DNA from: Bacillota bacterium
GTDB lineage: Bacteria; Bacillota; Sulfobacillia; RBS10-35; JAJYVN01
NCBI GenBank assembly: GCA_021803205.1
Contig: JAJZMB010000029.1
Location: 1,765 to 65,764, forward strand
Reading direction: 5' to 3'
DNA length: 64,000 bases
In this document: one piece after another, positions 1-64,000 of the stretch
Numbering within the stretch: the first letter of the stretch is position 1
Layout of the letters: each line of letters starts with the position of its first letter
Program-made: the position numbers and the translations under genes
The notes under the pieces: generated by a model
What the model was told of the DNA's origin: nothing
The model's database searches: none
The model's input: the letters and a program-made list of their open reading frames with translations, nothing else

Positions 1-625
<625 letters not shown>

Positions 626-755
626 TTATCCCCTTGCGTCCCGGGCGACCTCCGGGGCCGGCGCGAAAGCCCTCCTCCGCAGCCCCCCCCGGACAGCGGA
701 CCCCTCACCAGCCGGCCGGGCGCCAGGGGACAGACCGCGGCGGACGCCGCGCCGA

Positions 756-6213: not shown

Positions 6214-6329
6214 AGGAAAAGTCGTTTCATGGCCGCTCCTGACCATCCTCTTGCAGCGCAACCCTCTGGCGACCAACCAGGTCACTGAGTGGGTCCCGAT
6301 AAGTGGGAAACTCCCCTCAGGACGGCGCC
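6214..6329 (+). repeat. Degenerate or partial copy of the 91-nt intergenic repeat family
   Basis: Starts GGAAAAGTCGTTTCATGG (compare GCAAAAGTCGGTTTCTGC) and keeps CTGACCA and ACCCT islands of the core. The rest has diverged. Confidence 0.35.
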
Positions 6330-6420
6330 GCAAAAGTCGGTTTCTGCACTGACCACGAATCGTGGACCCTTGAGGGACAAGGAATACCGGAGCAGTGGCC
6401 TCGCAAAAGCGGACTTTTGC
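6330..6420 (+). repeat. 91-nt intergenic repeat, copy U1
   Basis: GCAAAAGTCGGTTTCTGCAC...CGTGGACCCTTGAGGGACAAGG...CCGGAGC...GCAAAAGCGGACTTTTGC. Both ends are small hairpins. 66 of 91 positions match copy U7 (reverse complement) in an ungapped hand alignment. Ends 9 nt from the guaB stop codon. Confidence 0.85.
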
Positions 6421-6429
6421 GCCGGCCAA

Positions 6430-9338
<2,909 letters not shown>

Positions 9339-13422: not shown

Positions 13423-15723
13423 CTACAGGTCGGGCCCCGCGGCGCCGGGATCCTGCGGCAGGGGCAGGTGCAGCAGACTGCTCGCGGTACTCCCGACCAC
13501 CTGCTCTGCCAGCTGCTCCGGATACTCGATCCGGGCGTGATAGGCCCCAACCAGAATCCGGCGGAAGGTGATCGAGATCGCATTGACGTCTCGCAGCGTC
13601 AGGGCGGCGGCGTCCAGTTGCCCGTCCTGCAGGCGGTCGGCCACGATCTTACGAATCATCTCCTCGATCTGTTCGACCGTCGGCTGCTTGAGAGAGCGCA
13701 CCGCCGCCTCGATGCTGTCCGCCAGCATGAGAATGGCCGCCTCCCGCGTCTCAGGTAGGGGGCCCTCGTAACGGAAGTCCTGCTCCGATACGGCCGGCGC
13801 GGCATGGGATCCCCCCGTGGCCGCCCGGTCGGCCGCCGCCCGGGCGGCATGGTAGAAATAGCGCACAAGCGTTGTGCCATGGTGCGTGCGGATGAAGGTC
13901 ACCAGTTCCTCCGGCAGGCGCGCCCGGTGCGCCATCTCCACACCATCGCGCACATGGCTGGTGATCACCATGGCCGACAGTTGCGGCGAGAGCTTGTCGT
14001 GGGGGTTCTCACCACCCATCTGGTTCTCCACGAAGAAAGCCGGACGCTTCAGTTTGCCGATGTCGTGATAATAGGCAGCGGCCCGGACGAGCAGGGCATC
14101 CCCGCCCACAGCCTGGCACGCGGCCTCGCCGAGATTCGCCACCATGATGCTGTGATGGTAGGTGCCGGGGGCCTCCACCGACAGCCGGTGCAACAGGGGC
14201 TGGCGCGCGTCAGCCAGTTCCAGCAGGCGAAAGGGCGTCAGGACCCCGAGCGCCTCCGCCAAGGGCAGGGTGCCAATGGCCAGGACAGCGGAGAGGAGCC
14301 CGGTGGCAGCGGAGGCGATCACCTCCCGCAGCAGGGAGCCGGACAGCGACGTCTGGGGCAGCAGGGACGCGCCAAGTGATAGATTCTGCCCGAGGAGGGG
14401 ACCGACGACCAGCGCCGTCACCGCGGCCCCGACCACAGCAGAGTAAACGCCGGCTCGGATGAAATCGGTGCGCTGCACCAATCGCCGGAGGGTGAACACC
14501 GCCGTCCAGGCCCCGGCACAGGCAGACACCGCCACCGCCAGACTGCCGTTGAGCACGCCGACGGAGAGGGCGCCCACGCCCGCGATGAACAGGGCCACCC
14601 CCGGCCCGAAGGCGGCGGAACCCAGCATCGCCGCCCATGCCACCGGGGCCAGGAAGGGCGAGATCACCATGCCGAAGCGAGACGCCCCCAGCGTCAGCAC
14701 CAGCACCGCGCCGAACAGCACCAACTGCACCTCGTCGCGTAGGGGTCGAGGATGGAACTGCGTCAGGTAGGCCCAGCACAGGGCAGCCAGCAACACGGCC
14801 AGGACCAGGGCTCCCGCCACCAGACCGAATGCCCCACCCGGCCGCAGCAGCCCGGCGGTCTGTAGGTTGATGATCTGGTTCGCGGTGACCGGGTTGCCGG
14901 CCGTTACGATCACCTGACCCCGGGCGATCTTGATCGGCTGCACCGCGTTCGCCTGCAGTTTCTTCGCCGCGGCGGTCGCCGCGGGATCCTGTTCGCGGTT
15001 TGGCACCAACTCCTGGGCCGCCAGCGCCGCCAGCAGGGCGGTGACACTGGCGGGGGCATGCATCTGCCGTATCTGCGCGGCCAACCTCTGCCGGTCACGG
15101 GCAATGTCCTGCCGGAGCACGCCGGCCGAAAGCATGCTGTTCAGATCCTGGCCGGCCTGCTGCTCTGCGGTCTGCAGGGTGCCGGCGTCGGTCAGCAGCA
15201 CCGCCTGGTAGTCCGCCGCCGGCAGCAGGGTGGTCAGACCCAGGTTTTCGCGCAGCGTGGAGACCGCCAGGGCCAGCCGAACCGCCGTGGAGTCGACGGA
15301 GGACGAAGCCGCAGACGATGCGGAGGAGGAGGCCGCCGATGGCACCGCGCGACCCGGCGGGGATGCGGGCGCGGCGAGTTCCTGCCGCACTTGCGCGATC
15401 TCGGCCGCGGCGGCCAAAAAGGCGTGCATGGCAGTGCTGGTGATGCTGCCATCGGTGATGAACACGGGCTGCACACTGTTGGCGGCGGCCTGCCGGACGC
15501 GGTCAGTTGCCGGGATGTTCACGATGGTCCGGGGAGAATAGATTGTGCGAGGAGCGATCTCGTTCACCTTGAGGTGAACTTCCTGCGGCAGGCTGACCGA
15601 GGCGTAGATGGCCGTCGTCGCCGCCACCAGAAGCAGGGCCCACACAGCCCGGCGGACCCCGGCGGCGCGCGCGATCGCCGCTGGCCAGCGTCCGGAGCAA
15701 GACAGCCATTCCCCAATGCTCAT
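13423..15723 (-). CDS. pgpH: 7TM-HD membrane phosphodiesterase PgpH/YqfF (cyclic-di-AMP phosphodiesterase family)
   Basis: N-terminal extracellular region, a 7-TM block, then an HD domain (YHHSIMVANL...YYHDIGK...THHG). The start is set at ATG 15723 (MSIGEWLS..., preceding the first TM). The 109 upstream codons in the track look non-coding. Confidence 0.85.
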   Translation of the reverse strand: MSIGEWLSCSGRWPAAIARAAGVRRAVWALLLVAATTAIYASVSLPQEVHLKVNEIAPRTIYSPRTIVNIPATDRVRQAAANSVQPVFITDGSITSTAMHAFLAAAAEIAQVRQELAAPASPPGRAVPSAASSSASSAASSSVDSTAVRLALAVSTLRENLGLTTLLPAADYQAVLLTDAGTLQTAEQQAGQDLNSMLSAGVLRQDIARDRQRLAAQIRQMHAPASVTALLAALAAQELVPNREQDPAATAAAKKLQANAVQPIKIARGQVIVTAGNPVTANQIINLQTAGLLRPGGAFGLVAGALVLAVLLAALCWAYLTQFHPRPLRDEVQLVLFGAVLVLTLGASRFGMVISPFLAPVAWAAMLGSAAFGPGVALFIAGVGALSVGVLNGSLAVAVSACAGAWTAVFTLRRLVQRTDFIRAGVYSAVVGAAVTALVVGPLLGQNLSLGASLLPQTSLSGSLLREVIASAATGLLSAVLAIGTLPLAEALGVLTPFRLLELADARQPLLHRLSVEAPGTYHHSIMVANLGEAACQAVGGDALLVRAAAYYHDIGKLKRPAFFVENQMGGENPHDKLSPQLSAMVITSHVRDGVEMAHRARLPEELVTFIRTHHGTTLVRYFYHAARAAADRAATGGSHAAPAVSEQDFRYEGPLPETREAAILMLADSIEAAVRSLKQPTVEQIEEMIRKIVADRLQDGQLDAAALTLRDVNAISITFRRILVGAYHARIEYPEQLAEQVVGSTASSLLHLPLPQDPGAAGPDL

Positions 15724-16157
15724 CCTCCAACGGCGCCTCCCTCCACCCCGGGGTGTCGGCACGCATGACAGACACGGCCGCAACGGCGACTCCGGCGACC
15801 GTGCCCTGGCCCGCCCCATCTGCCGCGGCCGGACGGATGCTCCCTGCATCGAGGATCCTCTGTGCCTGAACGCGGGCGCCCGGATAGGCGGTCGGTCCGG
15901 CAAGATCGACGGCGGCAGAGGCCACCCGGCGGCTGCCGGGGCGGATGCCCGGCTCTGGTGCCGCCCGCCGCACCAGCACTGATCCGGAACGGCGCTCAGC
16001 GGTCCGAAGCGGCGGGGCAGAGCCAGACGGCCCCAGGCCCGCCCGCGCATGCCGCATCACAATGACAGGTGGCCCGGCGGGGAATCATGCACCACGCCCA
16101 ACCGTCCGGGTGGTGGATCCCCCGGCGGGACCGCAGCGGCGCCCGCGGAACGGCTGA

Positions 16158-24388: not shown

Positions 24389-24519
24389 GCGCCCGCCCTC
24401 CCCCCATCCGCACCCGGCGGCACCAGGTACGACACCACCTTACACCGCGGTCGTAGTCGCGGAACCACCCGGCGGACACCGGCGCGCGCGGGCCAGGCGG
24501 CGCGACCCACAACGACACT

Positions 24520-24609
24520 GCAAGAGTCGGTCCTCGCGTCTGACCGGAGCCAACGAGCATGGGGGACAAGAGGCATCGGACCGTTGCCCCTGCAACAACG
24601 GCGTGTTGC
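24520..24609 (+). repeat. Intergenic repeat, copy U5 (90 nt) in the dnaK-dnaJ spacer
   Basis: GCAAGAGTCGGTCCTCGCG...CATGGGGGACAAGAGGCATCGGACC...GCAACAACGGCGTGTTGC aligns along its whole length with U1. Confidence 0.75.
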
Positions 24610-24692
24610 GGTGATGACCCGGGAGGACGCTGCGCAAGTCCGCTCGGCGCGCTTGCATCGCCCCGAGCCATCCGCACTCCACGCCCCGTGGG

Positions 24693-24783
24693 GTCGCCAG
24701 CCGTTCTTGCAGCTCCCTCAAACTCCGGTTTCTTGTCCCCCGACGTTTCCGAAGACGAGCACATCGCGAGCAGCGGGTTTTGC
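24693..24783 (-). repeat. Intergenic repeat, copy U6, convergent with U5
   Basis: Reverse complement reads GCAAAACCCGCTGCTCGCG...CGTCGGGGGACAAGAAACCGGAG...GCAAGAACGG. It starts 10 nt after the dnaK stop. A solo end-type hairpin (GCAAGTCCGCTCGGCGCGCTTGC, about 24633-24655) lies between U5 and U6. Confidence 0.7.
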
Positions 24784-24792
24784 AACGTCGTA

Positions 24793-26685
24793 CTAGGCCC
24801 CGCCCTTGACATCGTAGTCGGCATCCACGACCTTCTCACCGCCGGAGGCGGCGTCGCCGGCCGGACCGTCCGGGGCACCCGCGGCACCGGTCTTCTGGTA
24901 CATGGCGGCTCCGACTTCGAGGAGCAACCGCTGCAGGGCGTCCGACTCGCGGCGCATCTCCTCTGGGTCGTCACGGGTGGCGGCCAAGCGCACCTTCTCG
25001 GCCTGTTCCTTCACGGCGGCGGCCTTGCCGCCATCGACCTTATCGCCGAGCTCCTTCAGCGTCTTCTCCGCATTGTACACAAGAGCGTCCGAGGCGTTGC
25101 GGGCCTCGATGAGCTCCTGCCGCTTCTTGTCTTCCTCCGCGTGCGCCTCCGCCTCGCGCACCATGCGCTGAATCTCCTGTTCCGCAAGCCCACCGTGGCC
25201 CTGGATCGTGATCTTCTGCGACTTGCCCGTCGCTTCGTCCTTGGCCGAGACGTTCAGGATCCCGTTGACGTCGATATCGAAGGTGACCTGGATGTGCGGA
25301 GCACCGCGCGGCGCGGGCGGGATGCCGTCCAGGATAAAGCGGCCGAGCGACTTGTTGTCCGTGGCCATGGGCCGCTCACCCTGGAGGACGTGCACCTCAA
25401 CCTGCGTCTGGCCGTCGGCGGCCGTGGAAAAGGTCTGCGAGCGCGACGTCGGAATGGTGGTGTTGCGCTCGATGATGCGGGTGAACACTCCGCCGAGGGT
25501 CTCGATGCCGAGGGAGAGCGGGGTGACGTCGAGCAGCAGGACGTCCTTCACCTCGCCGCCAAGGACACCGGCCTGCACCGCCGCGCCCAGGGCGACCACC
25601 TCGTCCGGATTGATGCCCTTGAACGGCTCCTTGCCAAACAGGCGTTTGCAGGCATCCTGCACCGCGGGGATCCGGGTGCTGCCGCCCACCAGCAGGATCT
25701 TGTCGATCTTGGACGCATCGCACCCGGCGTCCTCCATCGCCCGTCGGGAAGGCCCCATGGTGGCCTCAACCAGATCGGCCGTCAACTCGTTGAAACGGGC
25801 GCGCGTCAATGTCATGTCCAGGTGTTTGGGCCCCTGGGCGTCGGCGGTGATGAACGGAAGGTTGATGTTTGTCTGCAGGACGCTGGACAACTCGATCTTA
25901 GCCTTCTCGGCCGCCTCCTTGAGCCGCTGCAGCGCCATGCGGTCCTTGCGCAAATCGATCCCCTGCTCACGCCGGAACTCCTCGGCGATATGGTCCATCA
26001 CGCGCTGATCAAAATCGTCGCCGCCCAGATGGTTGTTCCCGGAAGTCGCCTTGACCTCGAAGACACCGTCGCCGAGTTCGAGGAGTGAGACATCGAAAGT
26101 ACCTCCGCCGAGATCGAAGACCAGCACCGTGTGGTCCTCGCCCTTGTCGACCCCGTAGGCCAGCGCCGAAGCCGTCGGTTCATTGATGATGCGCAGGACC
26201 TCAAGGCCGGCGATGCGACCAGCGTCCTTGGTCGCCTGGCGCTGGGCGTCGTTGAAATACGCCGGGACAGTGATCACGGCCTGTTCGACCTTCTCACCGA
26301 GGTAGGCCTCGGCATCGGCCTTCAGTTTCCCGAGGATCATCGCTGAAATCTCCTCGGGCGAGTACTGCTTGTCGCGAACCGAGACGCGCGCCATGCCGTC
26401 CCGGCCAGCCACCACCCGGTAGGGGACGCGCCCGGCTTCCTGGGTGACCTCGCTCTCGCGCCGACCCATGAAGCGTTTGATGGAGAAGATGGTGTTTTCG
26501 GGGTTGGTGATGGCCTGCCGCTTGGCGACCTGCCCGACCAGCCGCTCGCCATCCTTGGTGAAGGCGACAACCGAAGGCGTCAGGCGGCTGCCCTCCGCGT
26601 TCGCAATGACGACGGGCTCGCCGCCTTCCATCACCGCCACCACGGAATTGGTCGTTCCGAGGTCGATTCCGATGATCTTGCCCAT
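24793..26685 (-). CDS. dnaK: Molecular chaperone DnaK (Hsp70)
   Basis: [18 protein letters not shown]..., [10 protein letters not shown] and [14 protein letters not shown]. 630 aa. Confidence 0.97.
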
Positions 26686-36505: not shown

Positions 36506-38266
36506 ATGCGCTCCGAGTTAGTGTGGAAGGTGGGCGGCGAACAGGGATCGGGGATCGAGAAGCCGGGCTCGATCTTCCTGGACGCGTGCAGCCGCCTCGG
36601 CTACTACTCCTTTGGGTACCGGCACTTCATGTCCCGCATCATGGGCGGGCACACGAACTATCAGGTGCGGATCTCGCACAAGCCGGTGTTCGCGATGGGC
36701 GATCACACCGACGTGATGCTCATCGACAGCAAGGGCGCGCAGGAAGCCATCGACATGAACATCGGCGAGATGGCAGCGGACGGCGTGATCATCGCCGACG
36801 CGGGCATGAAGGCCGAGATGCCTGCGGGCAGCCAGGTGCGGCTGTTCAAGGTACCTTTTCACGGCATAGCCGGCGAGATCGGTTCAGACCTCTACTGGAA
36901 CATGGTGGCCATGGGCGCGAGTTGCGCCGTGACGGGGCTCGACCGCCAGGCCCTGCGGGACATGGTGTATGCCACCTTTGCCCGTAAGGGTGAGAAGATC
37001 GTGCAGGCCAACTACGACGCGATCGACCGCGGGTATGCCTACGTGATCGAACATTACGGAGAACTCCCGCATCTGAAGGTCGCCCCCGTTCCCAGGCCCG
37101 TGCGCCGGTTGACGATGGAGGGCGACAACGCGGCGGCATTCGGCGCGTTGGCTGGCGGCTGCCGTTTCCTCGCCGCCTACCCGATCACGCCGGCATCGAT
37201 GGTGATGGAGTGGATGGCCAAGGAGGCACCCAAGGTCGGCGGCATCGTCGTGCAGGCGGAGGACGAGATGTCGGCAGTGCTCATGGCCATCGGCGCCAAC
37301 TACGCCGGGGCGCGCGGCATGACCTCCACCTCCGGGCCCGGCTTCAGCCTGATGCAGGAGGCGCTCGGGCTCTCCGGCCTCACGGAGACGCCGGTCGTCA
37401 TTGTGGACGTGCAGCGCGGCGGCCCGGCCACCGGCCTGCCGACGAAGCCCGAGCAGGGCGACATCAATGAGATGATCTACGGCTCCCATGGCGAGATCCC
37501 GCGCGTGGTCATCGCGCCCGGGACCTACGCCGAATGTTTCTACGACACCGCAGAAGCGTTTAACCTCGCAGACCGGCACCAGTGCCCGGTGATCGTGGCC
37601 ATGGATCTGACGCTGGGCATGGGCAAGGGTACGGTGGAACGGCTGGACTGGAGCCGACTGCGCATCGACCGCGGCAAGATTCTGACCGCCGCGGACATCG
37701 CTAGGCTCGGCGGCGAATACGAGCGCTTCGCCAACACCGAAGACGGCATCTCCCCGCGCGCCCTGCCGGGAACGCCCGGGGGGATCCACCTGAACACGGC
37801 GGATGAACACACCTTTTCGGGCCGGATCACGGAGAATCAGGAACAGCGCCGGGTCATCCACGACAAGCGCCTGCGGAAGACCGACCACGTCGACTTCCCC
37901 GGACTGGCGGTGCGCGGCGACCTGCCGGCCGATCTGGTCTTGGTGGGCTTCGGCTCTGTCACCGGTCCGATGTGGGAGGCGGCAGAGCGGCTCGTGGCAG
38001 AGGGGCGGCATGTGGCGGTCTGTCAACTGCGCCGCCTGTGGCCCTTCCCAACCGAAGAATTTCTGCGGGTGCTCTCCCAGGCGGAGGCCGCCCTGGTCTG
38101 CGAACACAACGCCACCGGCCAACTCGCCCACCTGATCCGGGCGCAGTGCGGCGGCGACCTGCTGCCGGGACTGCGCAAGTATGACGGCGACCCGTTCCGG
38201 CCCGCGGAAGTCGTCGCCCGCGCGAAAGAGGTGATGGCGGATGTCGGCAGTGCTCGTATCGCCTAA
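36506..38266 (+). CDS. korA: 2-oxoacid:ferredoxin oxidoreductase, alpha subunit
   Basis: MRSELVWKVGGEQGSGIE...AYPITPAS...GGPATGLPTKPEQGD. ATG 36506 has a GAAAGGGGTGA RBS. Confidence 0.9.
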   Translation: MRSELVWKVGGEQGSGIEKPGSIFLDACSRLGYYSFGYRHFMSRIMGGHTNYQVRISHKPVFAMGDHTDVMLIDSKGAQEAIDMNIGEMAADGVIIADAGMKAEMPAGSQVRLFKVPFHGIAGEIGSDLYWNMVAMGASCAVTGLDRQALRDMVYATFARKGEKIVQANYDAIDRGYAYVIEHYGELPHLKVAPVPRPVRRLTMEGDNAAAFGALAGGCRFLAAYPITPASMVMEWMAKEAPKVGGIVVQAEDEMSAVLMAIGANYAGARGMTSTSGPGFSLMQEALGLSGLTETPVVIVDVQRGGPATGLPTKPEQGDINEMIYGSHGEIPRVVIAPGTYAECFYDTAEAFNLADRHQCPVIVAMDLTLGMGKGTVERLDWSRLRIDRGKILTAADIARLGGEYERFANTEDGISPRALPGTPGGIHLNTADEHTFSGRITENQEQRRVIHDKRLRKTDHVDFPGLAVRGDLPADLVLVGFGSVTGPMWEAAERLVAEGRHVAVCQLRRLWPFPTEEFLRVLSQAEAALVCEHNATGQLAHLIRAQCGGDLLPGLRKYDGDPFRPAEVVARAKEVMADVGSARIA

Positions 38267-50245: not shown

Positions 50246-50479
50246 TCAGCGCGAGCGAAACTCCGACCGGCCGGCGAGCTGCTGCTCCGCCAACTCGATC
50301 ATGCGCCGGACCATGTGTCCCCCGACCGCGCCGTTCTGGCGCGAGGGGATGTCGCCGCCGTAACCTCCGTGCGCCTCGTAATTGACGCCGATCTCGCTGG
50401 CCGCCTCGAACTTCAACTGCTCGAGGGCCGCTTCGGCACCGCGCACGACGGTCCGATTGGACTGTTGACCCGTGGCCAC
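50246..50479 (-). CDS. Alpha/beta-type small acid-soluble spore protein
   Basis: (M)ATGQQSNRTVVRGAEAALEQLKFEAASEIGV...GDIPSRQNGAVGGHMVRRMIELAEQQL. 77 aa. GTG start with a GGAGGTGA RBS. Confidence 0.9.
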   Translation of the reverse strand: MATGQQSNRTVVRGAEAALEQLKFEAASEIGVNYEAHGGYGGDIPSRQNGAVGGHMVRRMIELAEQQLAGRSEFRSR

Positions 50480-50510
50480 CTCGCTGTCACCTCCCCGCCG
50501 GAAGTGGGCC

Positions 50511-50541
50511 TAGTATGGCGACGGCGCGGAGATGGCTATGC
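50511..50541 (-). promoter_or_regulatory. Candidate sigma-G type promoter of the SASP gene
   Basis: Minus strand reads GCATA-19 nt-CATACTA. CATACTA fits the CATxxTA -10 and GCATA the GHATR -35. The spacer is 1-2 nt longer than the B. subtilis norm. Confidence 0.45.
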
Positions 50542-50691
50542 CGCAAAAAGTTGGTGTGGCATCCGGGCGCGTTGCGCCGCAGGGCGGCGGCAGGCCTGCA
50601 CTGGGACAGCAACGAACGCCGAACTGCTCGCGCCAATAGTCCAGCCGACGGCGGTGCGCGCCGAGGGCGGCCATGGCAGTAGGAGTCCGTT

Positions 50692-50782
50692 GCCAAAGGC
50701 TCCTCTTGCGGCAGCCTCGGGCTCCAGAGCCTTGTCCCCTAAGGGATTCGAGATCGCGGGCGCCGCCGAAACCGACTTTTGC
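50692..50782 (-). repeat. 91-nt intergenic repeat, copy U2 (left member of a divergent inverted pair)
   Basis: Reverse complement reads GCAAAAGTCGGTTTCGGC...CCCTTAGGGGACAAGGCTCTGGAGCC...GCAAGAGGAGCCTTTGGC. Exactly 91 nt. Confidence 0.85.
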
Positions 50783-50789
50783 AGGGCCG

Positions 50790-50880
50790 TCACAGTGCGG
50801 TCTCCGCACCGGTCGCGAAGCGTGGAACCCCGGGGCGCAGAGATCTTCGAGCCAGCGGCCGCGCAAGAGCGGACTTTTGC
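50790..50880 (+). repeat. 91-nt intergenic repeat, copy U3 (right member of the inverted pair)
   Basis: ...GCGGTCTCCGCACCGGTCGCGAAGCGTGGAACCCC...GAGCCAGCGGCCGCGCAAGAGCGGACTTTTGC. The 3' half is almost identical to U1. Confidence 0.8.
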
Positions 50881-50963
50881 CGCGGCCACCTGGACCGATC
50901 CCCCGATACTGACGGCGGCGGACCTGGGATAGGCCGGGACGACCCGCCCTGCGCCGCCCCAGC

Positions 50964-53036
50964 CTATCCCGCCTGTGCCCGACTTTCCGGCTGTGCCAGC
51001 ACCGCCTCGGTAACAATGGCCACGCCCCGCTGCATCTCCGCGTCGGTAACCGTCAGCGGCGGCATCAGCCGCAAGACGGTCCCGGCCGTGCAGTTGACAA
51101 GCAGCCCCCGCGCGCGACAATCGGCCACGACCCGCGGACCAAGGGCGGAACCCCCGTCGAGTTCGATCCCGGTCATCAGCCCGAGGCCACGGATTTCCTT
51201 CACCGAAGGGCATCCCGCGAGAGCCTGTGCCAGCAATGACCGGAAGTGCGCACCCGCGGTCGCGCCGCGCTCTGCCAGACCCTCCGCGACCAGGACCTCC
51301 CAGGCAGCCAGCGCCGCCGCGGCCACTATGGGGTTGCCCCCGAACGTACTGGCGTGATCCCCCGGCTGCAGGGCTTCCGCCCACGGTTCCGCCGCCAGGA
51401 ACGCCCCCATCGGCAGGCCAGCCCCCAGGGCCTTGCCCAGCGTCAATACGTCGGGCCGGACCCCGTAGTGCTGAAAGGCGAAGAGCGCGCCAGCCCGCCC
51501 AAGCCCACACTGCACCTCGTCGAAGATGAGGCATGCCCCGTACCGGTCGCACAGATTCCGCAGCCGGCGTAGGAACGCCGCCGACGCCGGACGCACGCCG
51601 CCCTCCCCCTGGATGGGCTCGACGATCACGCCAGCCGTCTCTGGACCGATCGCAGACTCCAAGGCGTCCGCGTCGTTCCAGGGCAGTTCGCGGAAGCCGG
51701 GCAGCATGGGGCCGAAGCCCTCCTGGTAGCCCCGCGTCACGGCGAGCGCACCATAGGTGCGCCCGTGGAAGGAGTGATGGAAGGAGGCGATCTCGGTCGC
51801 CGGCGGCCGCCCGGCCGCGCGCGCCGCACGCCAGGCGGCCTTCCGCGCCAGTTTCAGCGCGCCCTCGGTCGCCTCGGCGCCGCTGTTGCAGAAGAACACG
51901 CGGCCCGGGAAGGCTGCTCCGGCAAGGGCTTCGGCCAGCCGCAATTGCGGCAGGGTATGGTACAGGTTGCTTGTGTGTCCAAGAAGGCCCGCCTGGCGCC
52001 GGATCGCCTCGACCACCTTCGGGTGGCAATGGCCGAGATTGGTCACGCTGATCCCGCAGAGGAAATCGAGGTACTCGCGACCCTCTGCGTCCCATACGCT
52101 ACTGCCGCTGCCGCGGATGAGCACCACGGGATTGCGGGCATAGGTGTGCATGACGTAAGCCCTGTCGGCGGCGAACACCTCGGCGGAATCAGGTTGGGCG
52201 GTCTCCGCAGACGACCGCCCAACCTCCGACACGAAGACCGTTCCCGCCGACTCCCGAGCAGCCACGGCATCCGCCACCGCACCCTCCCGCCGGCCGTCGA
52301 CGATCCAGGCCGAGCGCACCCCGCCCCGCAGGGCGCGCAGGCAGGCATCCACCTTCGGCCGCATACCGCCGGTGACAACTCCCTCCGCCATCAGGCGGAC
52401 GGCGGTCGCGGCGTCGCAGGTGGGCAGCGGCCCGTCGCGCCCCGGGACCAGCAACCCGGGAACGTCCGTAGCCAGGCACAGGCACTCGGCGCCAAGGGCG
52501 GCCGCGATGTCCGCGGCAGCGTCGTCGGCGTTGACATTGTATGGTACGCCGTCCCGACCCGCAGCCACGGGCGCCACGACCGGAAGGAAGCCAGCACGCC
52601 GCAGGCCGTCCAGAACCTCGGTCCGCACCCGCGTGATGGTGCCCACCTGCCCCAGGTCGAGGGGACGGCCGTCTTCGCCCGCCAGCGCCAGCGGCGCGGC
52701 CTCGAGGATGTGCGCGTCACGCCCGCCCACGCTCAGCGCCGTGGCCCCGGCATCCGTCAGGGCCCAGGCGATACCCTTACCCACCAGACCAAGCGCCATT
52801 TCGGCCAGCGCCACAGTATCGGGGTCGCTGTAGCGCAGACCGGCGACGAAGCGCGTCTGCAGCCCGGCCCGCTCGGACCAGCGCGTGATCTCCGGCCCGC
52901 CGCCGTGGACAATCACGACATTGCGACCTTCCCGCCAGAGCGCGATCACATCGCGGAGCGCAGGGAGGAGCCCGCCCCCAACCGCCACGGCGGCCCCGCC
53001 GATCTTGACGACGATGCTCCCAGGCTCCTGCGCCAC
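50964..53036 (-). CDS. argB-argD: Fused acetylglutamate kinase (ArgB, about aa 1-269) and acetylornithine aminotransferase (ArgD, about aa 289-690)
   Basis: One uninterrupted 690-codon frame. The N-terminal part has VVKIGG...VIVHGGGPEI...YNVNADDAAADIAAAL...TGGMRPKV. After the linker SEVGRSSAETAQPDSAEVFAA comes YVMHTYARNPVVLIRGSGSSVWDAEGREYLDF...CNSGAEATEGALKLAR...DEVQCGLGRAG...TLGKALG. GTG start with a GGGGGGAGTGA RBS. Confidence 0.85.
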   Translation of the reverse strand: MAQEPGSIVVKIGGAAVAVGGGLLPALRDVIALWREGRNVVIVHGGGPEITRWSERAGLQTRFVAGLRYSDPDTVALAEMALGLVGKGIAWALTDAGATALSVGGRDAHILEAAPLALAGEDGRPLDLGQVGTITRVRTEVLDGLRRAGFLPVVAPVAAGRDGVPYNVNADDAAADIAAALGAECLCLATDVPGLLVPGRDGPLPTCDAATAVRLMAEGVVTGGMRPKVDACLRALRGGVRSAWIVDGRREGAVADAVAARESAGTVFVSEVGRSSAETAQPDSAEVFAADRAYVMHTYARNPVVLIRGSGSSVWDAEGREYLDFLCGISVTNLGHCHPKVVEAIRRQAGLLGHTSNLYHTLPQLRLAEALAGAAFPGRVFFCNSGAEATEGALKLARKAAWRAARAAGRPPATEIASFHHSFHGRTYGALAVTRGYQEGFGPMLPGFRELPWNDADALESAIGPETAGVIVEPIQGEGGVRPASAAFLRRLRNLCDRYGACLIFDEVQCGLGRAGALFAFQHYGVRPDVLTLGKALGAGLPMGAFLAAEPWAEALQPGDHASTFGGNPIVAAAALAAWEVLVAEGLAERGATAGAHFRSLLAQALAGCPSVKEIRGLGLMTGIELDGGSALGPRVVADCRARGLLVNCTAGTVLRLMPPLTVTDAEMQRGVAIVTEAVLAQPESRAQAG

Positions 53037-60523: not shown

Positions 60524-60696
60524 GCGCTCACCCCCGGTGATATGCCGTACGGCGTTCTCTATATCGGTGCGGGAGAAGCGCGGCGTGAGGGGATCAGACG
60601 TTCTGCGCCCGACGCCGATGGCGTGAGCGCTCGCCTAGGCGCCGCCCCCAGGATTCGGCCTCTGGCGCCTCAAAACCGCCGGCCCTGGAGGACGTT

Positions 60697-60787
60697 GCAA
60701 AAGGCGGTTTCCGCACCGGCCCAAAGCAGGAGACCCTCAGCAGTCCAGGGACATCGGGACCGCGGCTGCGCAACAGCGGAGTTTTGC
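60697..60787 (+). repeat. 91-nt intergenic repeat, copy U4
   Basis: GCAAAAGGCGGTTTCCGCACCGG...GACCCTCAGCAGTCCAGGGACATCGGGACC...GCGCAACAGCGGAGTTTTGC. Exactly 91 nt, between the thrB 3' end and the motA 5' region. Confidence 0.8.
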
Positions 60788-60910
60788 AACGCCCGGGTGG
60801 CGCCAGCACTGAAAGCGGGTTGAGCGGCGCCGGCCCCAAGCAAGGCGCGCAGCGGTGGCGACGACCCACCGCTGGGGCGGCGACGTCCCGGCAATACACC
60901 GCCGGCCGTC

Positions 60911-63756: not shown

Positions 63757-63853
63757 TTCCCAGGCCAAAGGCCCGCACCTGTACTGCACAGGTCCCGGAA
63801 CCCGAGGCCTCCACCCGCGGACCACACCTGCCGTCGCGGCCCGGGCGGCTGCT

Positions 63854-63944
63854 GTAAAAGTCCGCCTCTGCGCGGCCATTGCTCTAAAGGCCCTTGTCTC
63901 CAAAGGGTCCACGGTTCTCGGCCGGTGCAGCAACCGCTTCTGGC
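63854..63944 (-). repeat. 91-nt intergenic repeat, copy U7
   Basis: Plus strand GTAAAAGTCCGCCTCTGCGCGGCC...CCCTTGTCTCCAAAGGGTCCACGGTTC...GTGCAGCAACCGCTTCTGGC matches the reverse complement of U1 at 66 of 91 positions (ungapped, counted by hand). Confidence 0.85.
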
Positions 63945-64000
63945 AACGCCATCCTAGACAGCCGCTCCGGAGCGCGGCTTCGGAGAAGCGGCAACGGCGA

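Follow-up and report, generated by a model that had tools for sequence, protein, structure and literature searches.

A GC-rich family of inverted-terminus repeats, probably decayed MITEs, in an uncultured, spore-forming Bacillota bacterium

Two head-to-head repeats in the argBD-SASP spacer and the repeat family of the window

Two repeat units, U2 on the minus strand and U3 on the plus strand, are arranged head to head in the intergenic region that is bounded by the promoter of a gene encoding an alpha/beta-type SASP (50246-50479, minus strand) and the stop codon of an argB-argD fusion gene (50964-53036, minus strand). Both units belong to a family that comprises seven copies and two remnants in the window, a term that is used here for the whole 64-kb stretch of DNA that was analyzed. 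The window has a G+C content of 69% and belongs to an uncultured Bacillota bacterium that forms spores. In addition to the SASP gene, it carries an hrcA-grpE-dnaK-dnaJ operon, with YabP and YqfD encoded nearby. The closest named homologs of the DnaK protein are those of Thermaerobacter, with 74-75% identity, and the host is a heat-loving spore-former. The DNA of the window recurs in metagenome assemblies of ENA, Logan and NCBI, for instance in GCA_027332015.1. The members of the repeat family were detected by nhmmer searches, with the exception of one terminal fragment that was found in a scan for terminal inverted repeats. They are listed here in the order of their coordinates:

~583..668, minus strand: nhmmer match to model positions 28-116 with E 0.013-0.017, located between groES and groEL; probably a relic copy
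6317..6433, plus strand: U1, extended unit, nhmmer with the extended model, core 6330-6420; with 83% identity to the consensus the best preserved among the copies of the window
24507..24622, plus strand: U5, extended unit in the dnaK-dnaJ spacer, nhmmer, core 24520-24609; 65% identical to the consensus
24623..24662, minus strand: terminal (3'-end) fragment of a further copy, adjoining U5; terminal-inverted-repeat scan with 5 mismatches
24692..24797, minus strand: U6, extended unit, very decayed, nhmmer, core 24693-24783; 55% identical to the consensus
50680..50795, minus strand: U2, extended unit of subfamily B, 84.5 bits with the extended model in nhmmer, core 50692-50782
50796..50894, plus strand: U3, subfamily A, nhmmer (68 bits, model positions 16-120 only), core 50790-50880
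60683..60798, plus strand: U4, between a GHMP-kinase gene and motA, nhmmer, core 60697-60787
63841..63958, minus strand: U7, extended unit, nhmmer, core 63854-63944; left flank CTAG at 63954-63957

The seven copies were recovered at the coordinates and on the strands given in the original prediction, with core lengths of 91 nt in six cases and of 90 nt in U5, and the ungapped alignment of U1 with U7 again yielded 66 matches at 91 positions. In a leave-one-out nhmmer analysis, the omitted copy was recovered with 59 bits in the case of U1, 41 bits for U7, 33 bits for U4, 32 bits for U2, 28.5 bits for U3 and 25 bits for U5, corresponding to E values between 1e-6 and 2e-17 for these six copies, and the 20-nt motif of the 5' end gave no chance match in 100 shuffles. 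The repeat family is therefore real and lies far beyond chance. U6 is a marginal member, as its recovery in this analysis amounted to no more than 9 bits (E 0.1). The terminal fragment next to U5 starts with GGAGGACGCTGCGCAAGTCCGCTC on the plus strand and gives a weak nhmmer match to model positions 83-115. An additional nhmmer match at 36673-36701 is located inside the coding region of a pyruvate:ferredoxin oxidoreductase and was treated as chance.

According to GC3-based gene calls, the units fall between genes, and no gene was predicted inside them. The initial description of all copies as intergenic holds for the cores, but the extended unit of U6 reaches into the stop codon of dnaK and that of U1 into the stop codon of guaB. 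Relative to the flanking genes, three of the seven copies of the window point, by our tally, in the sense direction and four in the antisense direction; as predicted, the pair at 50.7 kb is arranged head to head and the copies between dnaK and dnaJ tail to tail. The copies are moreover clustered, U2 overlapping or abutting U3 and 2.5 copies being located between dnaK and dnaJ. The identity among copies ranges from 42 to 83% and that of the copies to the consensus from 55 to 92%. Together with the copies from related organisms that are described below, the family can be divided into subfamily A, consisting of U1, U7, U3, U4, T1a, T1b, T25, R1 and T2, and subfamily B, consisting of U2 and M39 with a pairwise identity of 82%.

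At the flagged locus, members of the two subfamilies meet. U3 is truncated at its 5' terminus by ~15-20 nt, precisely at the place where U2 with its flank begins. When U2 was deleted in silico, the alignment of U3 started at model position 6 instead of position 16, with a gain of only 4 bits (224 trial deletions). It is thus merely plausible that U2 was inserted into the 5' end of U3, which would represent a nested insertion. The counterpart of U2 in a hot-spring-type metagenome contig from JGI (L039) is 82-85% identical to it, with 85% over 114 nt in blastn.

Occurrence of the repeats in related organisms and in orthologous spacers

The original prediction had named a confinement of the copies to the window as an argument against it; copies were detected on other contigs and in related organisms as well. 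Outside the window, they were found only in a few related uncultured Bacillota, the nearest named relative of which is Thermaerobacter. The copies T1a, T1b, T25 and T2 belong to the Bacillota MAG TL1-5.bin93 and to contigs encoding an identical CinA protein, the copies R1 and R2, the latter with an internal deletion, to a relative with 87% CinA identity, and M39 to a single organism that is represented in two JGI metagenomes by the contigs L039 and L041 and was the only one detected in the JGI scan. The copies of these relatives are located at differing loci (L001, L025, L121, L125 and L039). In the GTDB species representatives (~185,000 species), three scans with exact patterns detected the repeat only in the Bacillota MAG TL1-5.bin93, the remaining matches being due to chance. 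A match in Eggerthellales (L115) was rejected, since it agrees with the repeat at the specified positions of the pattern only. Neither a scan of viral contigs nor a blastn search of plasmids yielded a match, and the closest GTDB relative retrieved by a neighbouring-protein search (56% identical) is devoid of copies. As a separate observation, the ends of metagenome contigs coincide with repeats, and some contigs end near U7.

The spacer between argBD and the SASP gene was compared between the window and three relatives:

Window: 484 nt, U2 and U3 present
L093 (ArgBD 83% identical to that of the window): 456 nt, no copy
L094 (ArgBD 76% identical to that of the window): 88 nt, no copy
L097 (ArgBD 71% identical to that of the window): 146 nt, no copy

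The part shared by the spacers of the window and L094 is restricted to ~75 nt that represent the promoter and leader of the SASP gene. Likewise, the dnaK-dnaJ spacer, which measures 404 nt in the window, is 161 nt long in L116 (92% DnaK identity) and 99 nt long in L118 (86% DnaK identity), with no copy in either of them. The element is absent from the orthologous spacers compared in relatives at 71-92% protein identity, and the insertion sites are not common to different species. Among strains, no insertion polymorphism was observed, as all contigs with an identical SASP, DnaK or CinA carry the same copies. An exact pair of filled and empty alleles was not found, and two candidates for such pairs were rejected: an indel near T1a that distinguishes L121 from L123 turned out to be an unrelated replacement (562 nt versus 64 nt), and a 740-nt extra segment around R1 in L125 is composite. 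Judging from the pairwise identities of 42-83% and the unshared insertion sites, the family is old, with no sign of recent activity.

Structure of the unit and its predicted fold

The length of the unit is ~117 nt instead of the 91 nt assigned to it originally, since ~13 nt are conserved beyond the core on each side. The resulting consensus is CTAG-GACGGCGCT-(91-nt core)-AGCGGCCAC-CTAG, with terminal inverted repeats that read GGACGGCGCTGCAAAAGTCGG at the left end and GGTGGCCGCTGCAAAAGTCCG in the reverse complement of the right end. The proposal that each end is a small hairpin of its own applies to the 3' end, which has the option to form a 7-bp hairpin (GCAAAAG-CGGA-CTTTTGC) that is perfect in U1, T25 and M39, but only imperfectly to the 5' end (GCAAAAG-TCGG-TTTCYGC, with 1-2 mismatches). 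In the predicted folds, the 5' sequence GCAAAAGTC pairs mainly with the 3' sequence GACTTTTGC and the two ends thereby form a closing stem. The best-preserved copies are predicted to adopt a single long rod, representing an imperfect palindrome with the apex CCCTTG-GGGGA-CAAGGG, and this rod shape is found in both subfamilies despite their differing arms. The mean column identity of the apex CCCTTGGGGGACAAGGG is 0.81, which makes it as conserved as the termini (0.77-0.85). A fold distinctly more stable than that of shuffled sequences was predicted only for U1, T1a and M39 (free energies of -46 to -62 kcal/mol with z-scores of -1.8 to -3.4), and the folds of U2 to U7 are no better than those of shuffled sequences (z between -1.0 and +1.0).

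A fold of this kind could belong to a structured RNA under selection, either a cis-regulatory element by which transcripts of the chaperone operons and others would be stabilised, processed or subjected to attenuation, or a family of small RNA genes, the latter having been considered in the original prediction. The stable predicted fold of the well-preserved copies and the conserved apical hairpin point in this direction, as do the rod shape kept by subfamilies A and B and the presence of copies in the dnaK-dnaJ and probably the groES-groEL spacers, where co-transcription must occur. Nevertheless, we regard such a function as improbable. The Rfam search revealed no match at the gathering threshold in the whole window and, at E<=10, only chance-level matches at the flagged locus (E>1.5), so that the repeat corresponds to no family already described there. 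The RNAalifold consensus is weak, with -7.3 and -5.0 kcal/mol and a positive covariation term. When the U1 fold was imposed on 11 copies, 73.0% of the cells were paired in comparison with 72.1% in column shuffles, and 115 of 500 shuffles reached a value as high; for the T1a rod on 13 copies, the respective values were 68.4% and 67.7%, with 120 of 500 shuffles as high. The covariation scores of both folds were inside the shuffle range. The lack of a fold better than shuffles in U2 to U7, the unbiased orientation relative to transcription and the absence of the element from the same operons of relatives likewise argue against a structured RNA, and scans with promoter and terminator consensus sequences detected no such site inside the elements. 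The complementary pairs CACTG/CAGTG in U1 and CGGCGGC/GCTGCCG in U2, noted originally as an internal pairing that seems to change on both sides, are indeed present, but they reflect the two subfamilies A and B and not a position-wise compensation. The hairpin belongs to the founder sequences and is not maintained in the resident copies.

Insertion sites and origin of the repeats

Tetranucleotides resembling CTAG are found on both sides of the extended units. The following flanks, given as left/right, were observed:

T25: CTAG / CTAG
M39: CTAG / CTAG
U1: TCAG (6317-6320) / TCAG (6430-6433)
T1b: CTGG / CTGG
R1: CTGG / CTGG
T1a: CTGG / CTCG
T2: CCGA / CTGA

Unequal flanks are also present in U7, U2 and U5. 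A tally of the cases with non-palindromic flanks showed that 16 of 20 positions agree as direct repeats, compared with 5 of 20 as inverted repeats. The flanking tetranucleotides thus seem to behave as direct repeats, and the putative duplication could comprise 2, 3 or 4 bp. Since CTAG is palindromic, it could also be part of the element rather than of the target. The tetranucleotide CTAG is scarce in the window, where 15 sites were counted in comparison with 182 expected from the base composition, an approximately ten-fold under-representation, and the element ends account for two of these 15 sites. Several flanks coincide with the ends of genes: the left CTAG of U6 (24793-24796) contains the TAG stop codon of dnaK, the right TCAG of U1 contains the stop codon of guaB (TGA, minus strand, 6430-6432), and T1a adjoins the TAG stop codon of cinA. 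In the relative represented by L125, the cinA site is empty and the stop codon is followed by unrelated sequence. A duplication of the target would leave the stop codons of dnaK, guaB and cinA intact.

The ends of the element were also compared with those of the insertion sequence IS5 from E. coli K-12. The left end GGAAGGTGC-GAACAAGTC can be aligned with the IS5 ends GGACGGCGCTGCAAAAGTC in the pattern GGA.GG.GC.G.A.AAGTC, a modest likeness that is confined to ~19 nt (77 of 20000 shuffles score as well; p ~0.004, or 0.013 with the GG tip fixed). The likeness of the right end is weaker, as 556 of 20000 shuffles were equally good (p 0.03-0.08). Insertion of IS5 reportedly duplicates a Py-T-A-Pu tetranucleotide, which is CTAG most often (PMC5493358). 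Because the ends of the repeat resemble those of IS5 and IS5 targets CTAG, an IS5-type DDE transposase is possibly the likeliest mobiliser, which is to be taken as a lead and not as proof. The CTAG-like flanks of the repeat are in line with the target choice of IS5, from which it differs by the weaker likeness of its right end and by having no transposase gene of its own. Members of the IS630 family generate a TA duplication within CTAG, and such a duplication fits the flanks of the repeat equally well. Neither the window nor the ~0.4 Mb of examined loci from the lineage contain a transposase gene bounded by such ends, and the repeats have only housekeeping genes as neighbours. The scans of the GTDB, JGI, viral and plasmid collections likewise yielded short copies or no match at all.

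Taken together, the repeats probably represent degenerated copies of a non-autonomous transposon with terminal inverted repeats, that is, of a miniature element of the MITE type. The element would have a length of ~109 nt with a CTAG-like tetranucleotide on each side, imperfect inverted ends of ~22 nt (left end GACGGCGCTGCAAAAGTCGG, right end CGGACTTTTGCAGCGGCCAC) and the ability to fold into a rod over the entire unit. A transposase encoded elsewhere in the genome would have recognised both ends and inserted the element at rare CTAG-like sites, with duplication of 2-4 bp of the target. At a G+C content of ~70%, these sites would often coincide with a TAG or TGA stop codon, and copies would consequently come to lie directly behind genes, with the stop codon kept by the duplication. 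The activity apparently ended long ago, and the resident copies would since have been drifting neutrally. If the repeats still affect the host, for example through RNA hairpins in the transcripts of dnaK-dnaJ or argBD-SASP, this would be a side effect.

This interpretation is based on the agreement of the repeats with the published description of prokaryotic MITEs as intergenic elements of less than 500 bp with terminal inverted repeats of ~4-30 bp, direct repeats that fade with age, stable stem-loops and a tendency to cluster or to insert into one another (PMC10969869). The present repeats are short and non-coding, possess terminal inverted repeats and occur in dispersed copies that differ between related genomes. 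The initial comparison with REP/BIME elements or MITEs is supported by the inverted termini, the flanks resembling direct repeats, the occurrence in both orientations, the clustering, the empty orthologous sites and the species-specific insertion sites. RUP of Streptococcus pneumoniae (~107 bp), the Correia/NEMIS elements of Neisseria and ERIC are likewise non-coding repeats of ~100-200 bp with terminal inverted repeats and short direct repeats, which are found in intergenic positions, often at the 3' ends of genes, in both orientations, and which show stem-loops, clustering or nesting, and subfamilies (PMC10969869). The present family differs from them in that it has no sequence similarity to them, is GC-rich and not AT-rich, consists of old copies throughout and is so far restricted to a few uncultured Bacillota related to Thermaerobacter. 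A composition as GC-rich as that of the host speaks against the assignment, as MITEs are usually AT-rich. Further points on this side are the conservation of the apex to the same degree as the termini, which is not required by pure neutral decay, and the small number of direct repeats that are not palindromic (U1, T1b and R1), next to the unequal flanks of several copies.

The main rival of a MITE is an element of the REPIN/RAYT type, in which each terminus consists of a REP-like palindrome and a conserved tetranucleotide, the termini being inverted around a spacer, and in which the RAYT (Y1 HUH) protein moves a single-stranded hairpin without target duplication. We consider this origin unlikely, although several properties of the repeats are in agreement with it. 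A conserved CTAG precedes each end, similar to the GTAG in front of the REP sequences of E. coli. The copies are numerous, extragenic, clustered and present in both orientations, and the terminal fragment next to U5 could be a REP singlet, as is known from remnants of such elements. The inverted termini have hairpins of their own, perfect at the 3' end of U1, T25 and M39 and imperfect at the 5' end, and the hairpin formed by the whole unit, with ~117 nt and within an overall range of ~90-120 nt, is close in size to a described REPIN of 89 bp (PMC3337134). The spacer of REPINs, however, is conserved only in its potential to form a hairpin and not in sequence (PMC3337134), whereas the centre of the present element is conserved, with the value of 0.81 at the apex, and its flanks agree as direct and not as inverted repeats (16 of 20 versus 5 of 20 positions). 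Moreover, a study of RAYT genes detected abundant REP-like 16-mers only in Groups 2 and 3, for which Escherichia and Pseudomonas were the genera used, and no RAYT gene is present in the examined loci, which cover only a minor fraction of each genome concerned. Less likely still is a REPIN-like element that was moved by a domesticated Y1/RAYT protein or an unusual enzyme and whose apical hairpin serves as a protein-recognition site, or a set of hairpins that was co-opted by the host to stabilise or process mRNAs of chaperone operons.

A site-specific recombination site, either similar to the attC sites of integrons or representing an attachment repeat of a phage or integrative element, is very improbable, even though an imperfect palindrome of attC-like size is located directly after stop codons and a strain variant carries phage-like genes that start ~15 nt beyond U1. 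The junction of these phage-like genes lies within the 3' end of guaB and thus outside the U1 element. Sites of the attC type are characterized by RYYYAAC and GTTRRRY core sites and occur in cassette arrays in one orientation with an adjacent integrase. The termini GCAAAAG.../...CTTTTGC of the repeats contain no such core sites, both orientations are present, the repeats are surrounded by syntenic housekeeping genes and not by cassettes, and no integrase is encoded nearby. Palindromic elements derived from IS200/IS605 (PATE), as associated with IS608 and ISDra2, have subterminal hairpins on the same strand and no inverted termini, and they insert beside a fixed tetra- or pentanucleotide that is found at only one of their sides; the inverted-repeat ends and the same tetranucleotide on both sides of the present repeats do not agree with such elements.

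The repeats are most likely an ordinary kind of genomic parasite that was previously undescribed in this lineage, and not a new RNA gene. A GC-rich, MITE-like family is thereby documented in an uncultured clade of high-G+C, spore-forming Bacillota. If a REPIN-like origin were true instead, systems of the REPIN/RAYT type would be extended beyond Escherichia and Pseudomonas, the genera used in the RAYT study mentioned above. With regard to a MITE, a preference for CTAG-type targets in a genome that is nearly free of CTAG would funnel insertions onto stop codons. In the host genome, the repeats lengthen the dnaK-dnaJ and argBD-SASP intergenic spacers, and pipelines for motif discovery could mistake them for small RNAs or riboswitch-like leaders.

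The guaB gene and its 3' end

Window 6430-9291 (-): guaB, encoding IMP dehydrogenase (953 aa)
L111 and L113, 1-5445 (counterpart of window ~6448): phage-like genes (RecU, ParB_N, phage metallopeptidase)

The deduced guaB product is about twice as long as a usual IMP dehydrogenase, and weak matches to Hint or intein-splicing domains separate two halves of the IMPDH domain; therefore, the protein probably contains an intein. Among the assemblies of this species, some (contigs L111 and L113) have the phage-like genes in place of the guaB side; in these, identity to the window restarts 15-19 nt within the 3' end of guaB, immediately beside repeat copy U1. The phage-like segment is either a chimera of the assembly or a prophage or integrative element located at the 3' end of guaB.

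The argB-argD fusion and the putative SASP promoter region

Window 50964-53036 (-): fused acetylglutamate kinase (AA_kinase) and acetylornithine aminotransferase (Aminotran_3), 690 aa
Window 50480-50560 (-): sigma-G-type promoter-like sequence and leader of the SASP gene

The spacer containing copies U2 and U3 is flanked by a gene whose single protein joins both enzyme domains. About 20 relatives share the fused arrangement, at 59-83% identity; the remoter homologues consist of the aminotransferase alone. The promoter-like sequence of the SASP gene (GCATA-N17-CATACTA) and the leader are likewise kept in relatives, the remainder of the spacer being unrelated.

Repeat copies in related metagenome contigs

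L121 11306-11330: tandem doubling of the T1a terminus, AGGTGGCCGC
L121 11582-12143 (562 nt) versus L123 11582-11645 (64 nt): strain-level replacement
L125 ~15598-15790: different MITE-like element of ~190 nt

Several contigs of the same species (L108-L110) stop at most a few hundred bases from copy U7 (window ~63700-64300), and contigs with the adjoining PALP gene comprise just 2-4 kb, as would be expected if these repeats break short-read assemblies. Copy T1a of L121 displays a small terminal duplication, as its terminal 10-15 nt occur twice in tandem immediately 3' of the cinA stop codon. The strain-level replacement is located about 150 nt downstream of T1a, and the replaced segment is probably a gene remnant undergoing deletion, since a metallophosphoesterase gene occupies the matching position in the relative L125. 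The MITE-like element of L125 is separated by about 20 nt from repeat copy R1 and is characterized by perfect inverted ends of 12 bp (CAATACCGCTTA / TAAGCGGTATTG) and a direct repeat of 10 bp (GGTCTTCGCC), and it lies within an apparent remnant of an ECF-sigma gene; the window lacks this element.

Spacers of the chaperone operons

Window 551-755: groES-groEL spacer, ~205 nt

This unusually long spacer holds a probable relic copy of the repeat. Accordingly, these elements lie between cistrons in the dnaK-dnaJ operon and probably also in the groES-groEL operon.
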